DNA of 64,000 nt from Enterobacter phage vB_Ecl_id4496, in the sequence record PQ824230.1; one strand, given 5' to 3'. Below the pieces are notes generated by a model. That model did not search any database, was not told the DNA's origin, and worked only from the letters and a program-made list of their open reading frames with translations. Of the stretch, positions 3,285 through 3,411 are shown piece after piece; the stretch's first letter is position 1; every line of letters starts with the position of its first letter. Both the position numbers and the translations under genes were made by a program.

Positions 3285-3411
3285 TGTTCAGTGCTGGAAT
3301 TGGTAGACAAGGGGTCCAACACCTTTTGAGTTCGCATATTGAATCATATGCTGACGATGGTGGTAAAACGCCGCAAGAACATGCTTACAGGTTCGAGTCC
3401 TGTCTGAACAC
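3285..3411 (+). ncRNA. 127-nt tRNA-like RNA: tRNA-Leu-like acceptor and D arm plus canonical T arm, with ~40 extra nt between
   Basis: 5' tgttcag pairs with 3' ctgaaca; D loop ggaattggtagac (tRNA-Leu signature); T arm acagg-ttcgagt-cctgt; internal hairpin gcatat-tgaatc-atatgc. No clean anticodon arm found. Could be an interrupted tRNA or an rnaC/rnaD-like stable RNA. Confidence 0.5.

Follow-up and report, generated by a model that had tools for sequence, protein, structure and literature searches.

We describe here a 127-nt element on the + strand of Enterobacter phage vB_Ecl_id4496 (positions 3285-3411 of the window, i.e. the whole 64-kb stretch of DNA that was analysed), which, with a probability that we put at roughly 70%, is the gene for a non-decoding, tRNA-shaped RNA of ~127 nt that was derived from a class II tRNA-Leu and has a tRNA-scaffolded binding or decoy role. 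Comparison of homologous sequences argues strongly for the structural part of this proposal: a tRNA-Leu-like acceptor stem, D arm, variable hairpin and T arm are predicted to enclose a long, covarying arm at the site of the anticodon arm. The element is new within the phage tRNA-like stable RNAs typified by T4 RNA C, and a literature search for a described family of such RNAs, whether in T4-like phages or in the wider set of phages discussed below, found none. Having a complete tRNA-Leu frame together with a covarying rod, it is a clearly readable and well-defined object for genetics.

Genomic context of the element

The phage is a T4-like Karamvirus that shows ~98% identity to Enterobacter phage PG7 over 2 kb. 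From 5' to 3' the element reads UGUUCAG-UG-CUG-GAAUUGGUAGA-CAA, followed by 62 nt, a short hairpin, and ACAGG-UUCGAGU-CCUGU-CUGAACA-C. It is located 3 nt 5' of a tRNA-Arg/Cys/Leu/Thr cluster: the spacer ACU and tRNA-Arg(UCU), which is recognized by both ARAGORN and Rfam, occupy 3412-3492 (+), and the cluster continues through tRNA-Cys, tRNA-Leu(UAA) and tRNA-Thr to 3749 (+), with CCA being encoded in all four genes. A comparable tRNA-like spacing of 2-4 nt to the adjoining tRNA is common to most of the lineages that carry the element. It has no annotation in PG7 and most other records; in the record of Potts1 a CDS is annotated across the homologue.

A scan for sigma-70 promoters and terminators returned nothing at the element. 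An A/T-rich box, TAATAAATA (3271-3279, +), the end of which is 5 nt before the 5' end of the RNA, resembles the T4 late-promoter box TATAAATA, and boxes occur at similar positions in two of the classes of homologues defined below, namely class B (TATAAATA along with TATAAT) and class E (TATAAAAT). We mention the TAATAAATA box, as a lead only, as a candidate T4-type late promoter, in which case transcription would start at about G2. Position 1 of the acceptor stem is mismatched in Marfa and Cronus, which suggests that the RNA might begin as a primary transcript at G2. In T4, RNA C and RNA D are both classed as late RNAs (PMC9697503).

Homologues and their classes

BLAST searches recovered the element from 146 phage records with the window (class A) copy as the query and from 178 with a divergent class E query, and pattern scans of viral and metagenome collections yielded further copies. 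No match to the element (BLAST, E<=10) was seen in any E. coli genome. The homologues are found in at least seven T4-like lineages. They occur in Karamvirus, Jiaodavirus, Marfavirus and phages of the Mexia type, in Winklervirus and Roskildevirus, and in EcS1 and Citrobacter phage Ursula. For the structural alignment, 21 distinct sequences were sorted into classes: class A comprises Karamvirus, including the window copy; class B, Jiaodavirus; class C, Mexia and Potts1; class D, Marfa; class E, Serratia phage CHI14, Erwinia phage Virsaitis27, Escherichia phage EcS1 and Erwinia phage Cronus; and class G, Citrobacter phage Ursula. Environmental contigs provide a shorter class, F, of ~105 nt. The frame is nearly invariant among the classes and the centres differ at most positions.

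The tRNA-Leu-like frame

The 5' strand of the acceptor stem, UGUUCAG (3285-3291, +), pairs with CUGAACA (3404-3410) and is followed by U8 and G9 at 3292-3293. Across the 21 homologues this stem is 97% paired; it has been compensatorily swapped in Cronus (GUACCA/UGGUAC) and features a U2-A71 pair in Ursula. The 3' strand together with the discriminator C occupies 3404-3411 (+); among the T4-like homologues, none of which encodes CCA, the discriminator can be C, U, A or G.

The D arm (CTG-GAATTGGTAGA-CAA in the DNA; 3294-3310, +) consists of a 3-bp stem, CUG/CAA, and an 11-nt loop, GAAUUGGUAGA, with A14, A15, G18 and G19. Pair 10-25 is a C.A mismatch in the window class, which leaves that stem weak, and G-C or A-U in other classes; the loop is nearly invariant across all classes. 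The version of the loop seen in classes B-G, AAAUCGGUAGA, is identical to the D loop of E. coli tRNA-Leu(CAA), with which the T loop is likewise identical; the sequence of this tRNA was found in 5425 of 5426 E. coli genomes.

At the 3' side of the long arm is a variable-arm-like hairpin, GCA-AGAACA-UGC (3373-3384, +), which is followed by UU up to 3386, with the last U taking the place of U48. The variable helix is weak (2-3 bp), with one invariant G-C pair, one pair that is either C-G or A-U, and a third that is often mismatched. All 21 sequences have a U immediately 5' of the T stem, an invariance that would fit an A15-U48 pair. The T arm, ACAGG, UUCGAGU, CCUGU (3387-3403, +), is 100% paired with compensatory changes at three of its five pairs, and its loop is UUCRAGU across the homologues, with UUCGACU in EcS1.

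Thus, of the features of a canonical tRNA the element displays the 7-bp acceptor stem, the D arm with G18 and G19 and the T arm with a UUCRANY loop; the 5-bp anticodon stem with its 7-nt loop (U33, purine 37) is absent, and the length of 127 nt lies beyond the canonical 70-95 nt. The sequence-only reading had already recognized the acceptor stem, the tRNA-Leu-type D arm, the T arm, the excess of ~40 nt and the want of a clean anticodon arm, all of which are borne out by our analysis. The last is in line with the behavior of the standard tools: ARAGORN in its default mode makes no call, and the element is not called by Rfam, either at gathering thresholds or at E<=10 on a 301-nt slice (3200-3500), with the tRNA model RF00005 having no match on it even at E<=10. 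When set beside tRNA-Leu(CAA), the element shares the 7-bp acceptor stem, U8 and G9, the 3-bp D stem, the D loop AAAUCGGUAGA (GAAUUGGUAGA in the window copy), the GGUUCGAGUCC T arm, the variable hairpin and the U at position 48; it differs in having a 62-nt arm of three helices in place of the 5-bp anticodon stem and 7-nt loop, in having neither a conserved A73 nor CCA, and in being ~40 nt longer.

A covarying rod in the place of the anticodon arm

The 62-nt arm begins 0-1 nt after the D stem, i.e. at the expected start of the anticodon stem. All classes have in common a nested arrangement, which proceeds from a basal helix (S1) through an internal loop (J1/J4), a second helix (S2) and an asymmetric loop or short helix (P3) to a terminal hairpin. 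In the window copy, the 5' strand of S1, GGGGU (3311-3315, +), pairs with ACGCC (3368-3372, +) with a single G.G mismatch; over the classes S1 spans 5-6 bp, and four pair types are seen at three of its positions. The S1-S2 internal loop, as placed by manual alignment, has J1 (CCAA; 3316-3319, +) on its 5' side and J4 (GUAAA; 3363-3367, +) on the other; J4 takes the form GNAAA in classes A-D, and classes E and G have GUAACC and GAAA, respectively. S2 is formed by CACC (3320-3323, +) and GGUG (3359-3362, +); it is 100% paired in all 21 sequences, and each of its four pairs shows compensatory change (CACC/GGUG, GCUU/AGGC, CUCU/AGAG and GGUA/UGCC).

Beyond S2, the structural alignment places J2 (UUUUGA), the 5' strand of P3 (GUU; 3330-3332) and an unpaired C at 3324-3333 (+), and, on the returning strand, an unpaired U, the 3' strand of P3 (GAC; 3353-3355) and J3 (GAU) at 3352-3358 (+). 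Classes A-E conserve the J2 motif NUUUGA; for J3, classes A and B have GAY and classes C-G have GUA. P3 (3330-3332 with 3353-3355) pairs only in classes A and B, where G-C and U-A change to C-G and U.G; in classes C, D and E its site is a purine-rich internal loop, with GAA opposite AGUA. Inspection by eye hints, purely as a lead, that these loops may be loop-E-like in classes C-E (GAA opposite AGUA) and kink-turn-like in classes A and B, where a U-rich bulge would be followed by tandem G.A. The rod is capped by the hairpin GCAUAU, loop UGAAUC, AUAUGC (3334-3351, +; stem 3334-3339 with 3346-3351), which is 5-6 bp long in the homologues, with its five outer pairs being canonical in 21 of 21 sequences and each showing 2-4 pair types.

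Of the two hairpins proposed in this region from the window sequence, both are present, and GCATAT-TGAATC-ATATGC is indeed the conserved terminal hairpin; the other, AAGG-GGTCCAACA-CCTT, is confined to classes A and B and competes with S1 and S2. Its loop in the window copy, UCCAACA, would have a C at both position 33 and position 37.

The consensus fold was evaluated on a hand-built alignment of the 21 sequences, which was fitted to the structure and entered N-padded, with its columns kept by the aligner. Since the MAFFT alignment is out of register by 1-2 nt at the terminal hairpin and at S1 of class E, the pair counts were taken from the hand alignment: there, 687 of 747 cells are canonical, a paired fraction of 92.0% as against 71.6% in shuffles; 26 of 37 pairs have changes on both sides as against 17.4; and the covariation score is 0.521 as against 0.169, with the observed value being reached by 0 of 500 shuffles for each of the three measures. 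Controls with slid partners gave at most 45.6% paired cells and a covariation score of at most 0.193, and a separate slide control of the central helices gave 96% for the proposed register versus 30-46%. Because this alignment was fitted by hand, RNAalifold was run on the plain MAFFT alignment as an unfitted control: it recovered the acceptor and T stems, the S1 core and S2 with all its four pairs, each with compensatory changes. The frequent G.U pairs establish the + strand as that of the RNA. In several classes the lowest computed energy belongs to a fold other than the consensus; in the window copy the consensus fold has -30.7 kcal/mol and the minimum-energy fold -38.7 kcal/mol, with local hairpins competing with S1 and S2, and in Mexia and Ursula the minimum-energy fold holds S1, S2 and the hairpin exactly.

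Decoding tRNA, tRNA relic, coding gene or other known RNA

These comparisons bear directly on what the element could otherwise be. One suggestion made from the sequence alone was a real tRNA gene with a short intervening sequence, the removal of which would give a decoding tRNA. Indeed, ARAGORN in its intron mode calls the window copy a tRNA-Phe(aaa) with a 47-nt intron, spanning exactly 3285-3411, and two homologues carry GenBank labels of this kind, i.e. 'tRNA-OTHER' in Mexia and a 'tRNA-Ser' of 131 nt in Potts1. However, the same mode calls the homologues Ala(ggc), Tyr(gta), Ser(gga), Pro(cgg), Thr(agt), Leu(aag) or Ile(gat), and makes no call for six of the 21; with eight different isotypes no anticodon or isotype can be said to be conserved, and we accordingly reject the intron reading. 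Further, the predicted anticodon stem of the window copy is 2 nt out of register with the covarying S1; the insert measures just 47-62 nt and has no match to the group I intron model (Intron_gpI); the presence of unpaired bases on both strands at both S2 junctions means that there is no bulge-helix-bulge; and the supposed intron holds conserved, covarying helices, i.e. it is the arm itself. An intron-bearing decoding tRNA is hence highly improbable, and the RNA with a long arm that we favor accounts for the stray 'tRNA-OTHER', 131-nt 'tRNA-Ser' and intron-mode 'tRNA-Phe(aaa)' assignments.

A second suggestion was a degenerate tRNA, which would make the element a decaying tRNA-Leu pseudogene without a function of its own. 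It is correct to the extent that the frame clearly goes back to a class II tRNA-Leu, and decay might explain why there is no canonical anticodon loop, why the discriminator varies, why CCA is missing, why the D stem of the window class contains a mismatch and why the standard tRNA finders overlook the element. Against it, the element is retained in at least seven lineages, in which the centres are mostly different yet every helix has been kept by compensatory changes, and the D and T loops are near-invariant. Such changes are the mark of a selected RNA structure and speak against decay; a pseudogene is very unlikely.

The same signatures address the possibility that selection acts on the DNA or on an encoded protein, with the element being a homing-endonuclease or recombination site, or part of a small protein gene. 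SegB-type homing endonucleases do act in T4 tRNA clusters (PMC13096335, PMC2330249), and a 46-aa ORF (3284-3424) overlaps the element, as does the CDS annotated in Potts1 its homologue. The compensatory changes and frequent G.U pairs are, however, strand-specific features of an RNA, and no reading frame stays open in every class; we consider either variant of this explanation scarcely credible.

Several known non-coding RNAs were also considered. With respect to tmRNA, ARAGORN in its tmRNA mode found nothing, pair 3-70 of the element is U-A and its length is 127 nt. The tRNA-like domain of tmRNA likewise combines an acceptor stem and a T arm with a long helix in place of the anticodon arm, but tmRNA, at ~350 nt, has a G3.U70 pair, encodes CCA and contains pseudoknots and a tag ORF. 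The single Rfam match in the vicinity was to YrlA (RF02553), at 23.5 bits against a threshold of 69; it joins the T arm of the element to the D arm of the tRNA-Arg and is thus a chance composite. YrlA is comparable as a non-coding RNA in which a long protein-binding helix is joined to a tRNA-like module made up of an acceptor-like stem, a D arm and a T arm, and differs in ending in that long stem (a permuted order) and in working with Rsr/Ro60. On inspection, neither a hammerhead nor a bulge-helix-bulge reading fits the element in core order, spacing or number of hairpins.

Relationship to T4 RNA C and RNA D

The T4 RNA C and RNA D have been on record for about fifty years without a function. 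In the case of RNA C, published accounts describe its function as still to be assigned (PMC3014915; PMC12685909). The sequence-only reading had raised the option that the element is a homologue of the two. It is the same kind of object as RNA C in the same kind of place: T4 RNA C (139 nt) is likewise encoded in a tRNA cluster, and its acceptor-like stem and T arm are accompanied by a long rod and a second hairpin. Nevertheless, alignment with T4 rnaC and rnaD by blastn (word size 7) detects no similarity beyond T-loop words of 11-14 nt, RNA C is devoid of a D arm, and Karamvirus has a true copy of RNA C elsewhere, at PG7 L002 594-732, with 79% identity over 139 nt. RNA D, for its part, has no tRNA features, and T4 rnaD has no match in the window or in PG7 L002. 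Orthology to either RNA is therefore very unlikely. The PG7 orthologue of RNA C is directly upstream of a tRNA-Gly, and positions 1-11 of the window are the 3' end of the RNA C gene; thus, the phage carries both RNA C and the element at 3285-3411.

RNA C is nonetheless the nearest known relative of the element in kind. Both are tRNA-cluster genes of ~130-140 nt with an acceptor-like stem and a T arm; in both, the anticodon arm gives way to a long, irregular rod, and another hairpin precedes the T arm. RNA C differs in having no D arm or G18G19 and in the two U.U mismatches of its acceptor-like stem; its pair 3-70 is A3-U70 in T4 versus G3-C70 in PG7, and its rod is ~66 nt long. A paralogous relationship between the two is possible, and would have to be very distant. 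In terms of gene content, T4-like phages keep a second, independent tRNA-shaped RNA beside RNA C.

Proposed mode of action

We infer from sequence features that the element is transcribed and processed to a stable RNA. Given its context, the 5' end is likely to be generated by excision from the transcript of the tRNA cluster by RNase P, as for the neighboring tRNAs, and the 3' end by RNase P cleavage of the next tRNA along with the tRNA 3' trimming enzymes. As the acceptor stem, D arm, variable hairpin, U48 and T arm are all kept, the RNA should adopt the tRNA L-shape, with the anticodon arm replaced by the predicted 62-nt rod of S1, internal loop, S2, purine-rich loop or P3, and terminal hairpin. 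The absence of a conserved anticodon loop and of CCA, together with the variable discriminator, argues against codon reading or leucylation. Hence, our reasoned guess is that the RNA has a binding or decoy role, with a division of labor between its two parts: the tRNA-Leu-like body would ensure processing and stability and would mimic tRNA-Leu to factors that read the elbow or core, and the conserved rod would offer a host or phage protein a specific surface to bind, so that the RNA could act as a sponge or decoy. A search for antisense targets within the 64-kb window yielded no match longer than 11 nt, and the 11-mers are at chance level.

A precedent for such an architecture is the tRNA scaffold, in which swapping the anticodon arm for another RNA gives a processed and stable product. 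Engineered tRNA scaffolds and viral tRNA-linked small RNAs share the architecture of the element; they differ in being artificial or from eukaryotic viruses, and our data lend no support to the rod being an exchangeable cargo. The Septu and retron-Eco7 systems cut class II tRNA-Tyr in the variable arm, and genes of the tRNA region of T-even phages counter them (PMC13096335). By analogy with this role of the T-even tRNA region in countering tRNA-cutting defences, a decoy role for the element is plausible, and our proposal would thereby link up with the work on that region (PMC13096335).

Alternatively, the RNA could be a charged but non-decoding carrier of leucine, which is aminoacylated by LeuRS either for a non-ribosomal use or to titrate that enzyme. 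In its D loop, T loop and A15/U48 positions the RNA matches the host tRNA-Leu, and A73 is present in 77 of 97 similar frames of the wider phage class, among the matches listed (see below). E. coli LeuRS ignores the anticodon and requires A73, and the element is therefore unlikely to be a dedicated LeuRS substrate: in the T4-like homologues a discriminator that can be any of the four bases and a CCA that is never encoded are unexpected for such a substrate. We accordingly regard the leucine carrier as unlikely, and retain the non-decoding RNA with a binding or decoy role.

Similar frames in other phages

A scan of IMG/VR with a pattern for the frame (AATTGGTAGAC, then 55-85 nt, then GGTTCRANTCC) matched at least 120 contigs; 95 of the at least 120 matches listed have all 7 bp of the acceptor stem intact where expected. 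Inclusion of an AATCGG variant brings the distinct elements with a perfect acceptor, among the matches listed, to 97 (the set in which A73 was counted above), and an anticodon-arm-like hairpin is seen in just two of them. The matches listed have ~80 different centres and acceptor stems that recur (e.g. AGUCAGG 23 times); ARAGORN calls just one in 120, and 21 of the 120 are within 300 nt of a tRNA. Some of the elements of this wider set score 35-47 bits with the Rfam tRNA model. A few of the matches (L027, L097, L155 and L167) have the appearance of true tRNA-Leu(UAA or CAA) genes whose anticodon loop contains an insert.

The elements of the wider set are co-oriented in replication/recombination modules, and clustering of the neighboring proteins among the matches listed revealed no constant partner protein. 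It is conceivable, if distinctly doubtful, that the element of vB_Ecl_id4496 belongs, as its T4-like branch, to a large and seemingly unnamed class of tRNA-Leu mimics that lack an anticodon and are carried by many unrelated phages; these would act as decoys or sponges for host factors that recognize the tRNA-Leu body (e.g. defence tRNases of the type cutting class II tRNAs, or LeuRS) or be charged with leucine for non-ribosomal use. The T4-like family may be homologous to the wider set or may just mimic the same host tRNA, and if the wider set were one functional class it would represent a common, overlooked type of phage RNA. The centres show a weak enrichment of certain k-mers, such as TAAGT in 20 of 81 versus eight expected (among the matches listed). 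A cultured phage with a possible trace of the frame is Bacteroides phage BS-TP2, in which a 21-nt match to the 5' frame (E = 0.4) lies in an unannotated gap between a DUF2303 gene and ninG.

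tRNA-Leu-like genes in unrelated phages

Genes of tRNA-Leu-like character, 100-130 nt in length, are very widespread across unrelated phages. The wider set considered here comprises the IMG/VR loci L049-L168 (at least 120), L019-L036 and L169, the last being a candidate in Bacteroides phage BS-TP2 (about 2490-2620) with a 21-nt match to the 5' frame. Among the matches listed, they share a characteristic frame: a perfect acceptor stem is combined with host-type D and T arms, and A73 is present in most members. This frame encloses a hypervariable centre of 55-85 nt without an anticodon arm. 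Certain acceptor stems, e.g. AGUCAGG/CCUGACU, recur among these matches, and the majority of the listed genes are located outside tRNA clusters and are unannotated.

Four members, L027, L097, L155 and L167, resemble genuine tRNA-Leu(UAA or CAA): their anticodon stem and variable arm are normal, and a hairpin of 20-45 nt interrupts the anticodon loop, which in L097 and L167 starts with CUU and ends with AAAA. A further contig, L055, encodes a tmRNA gene (49 bits) adjoining a group I intron (98 bits) at 7609-8193; the tRNA-Leu-like element of this contig is approximately 600 nt away.

A shorter variant, about 105 nt long, in which the acceptor stem is GGUUCAG/CUGAACC and the centre differs, is seen in L043 (767-851) and twice in L044 (660-764 and 1898-2002). 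The latter two copies lie 1238 nt apart on a single 2.1-kb contig, assigned by binning to a Bacteroidetes MAG from Kiruna.

Loop complementarity and gene neighborhoods in the element family

In several of the classes C (Mexia/Potts1), D (Marfa), E (CHI14/Virsaitis27/EcS1/Cronus) and G (Ursula), represented by L005, L006, L017 and L046, the loop of the terminal hairpin is complementary to that of the variable hairpin, the pairs being UGGU/ACCA in Marfa, AAGC/GCUU in EcS1 and CGUA/UACG in Ursula. This may represent a loop-loop contact or chance. The same comparison of the two loops in classes A (Karamvirus, including the window) and B (Jiaodavirus) found no complementarity.

Upstream of the element in the window are a gene of the Pfam Phage_30_3 (T4 gp30.3) family (2596-3045; E = 1.4e-59) and, between it and the element, a 60-aa ORF (3049-3231). 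A Phage_30_3 gene is immediately 5' of the element in class B, class E and Mexia of class C; its Jiaodavirus counterpart is labelled 'anti-CBASS protein acb1' in some records. The other class C members and class D (Marfavirus) have a different small ORF at this position.

Other RNA features of the window

The 85-nt tRNA-Cys(GCA) at 3497-3581 has a class II body, its variable arm being long and its D loop Tyr/Ser-like, and carries U73 together with the GCA anticodon, an architecture that is unusual among tRNA-Cys.

The intergenic region at 3966-4241 (276 nt), which is GC-rich and lacks an ORF, may contain additional small RNAs. Over the 250 nt tested (3966-4215), predicted folding is strong (-92.2 kcal/mol, z = -2.7); the hairpin CGCCCUGUCUUCGGACGGGGCG stands at the end and is followed by a TATAAATA box (about 4206-4213). 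In searches of 3966-4241, none of the Rfam families scored above threshold, nor was there any similarity to T4 rnaD.

The window begins within an orthologue of T4 RNA C (species 1 RNA), whose 3' end, CGTTCCGTACA, occupies positions 1-11. In Enterobacter phage PG7 (L002), the orthologue (594-732; 79% identity across 139 nt) is immediately 5' of tRNA-Gly, and the annotated 95-nt 'tRNA-Met' (639-733) is its 3' portion.
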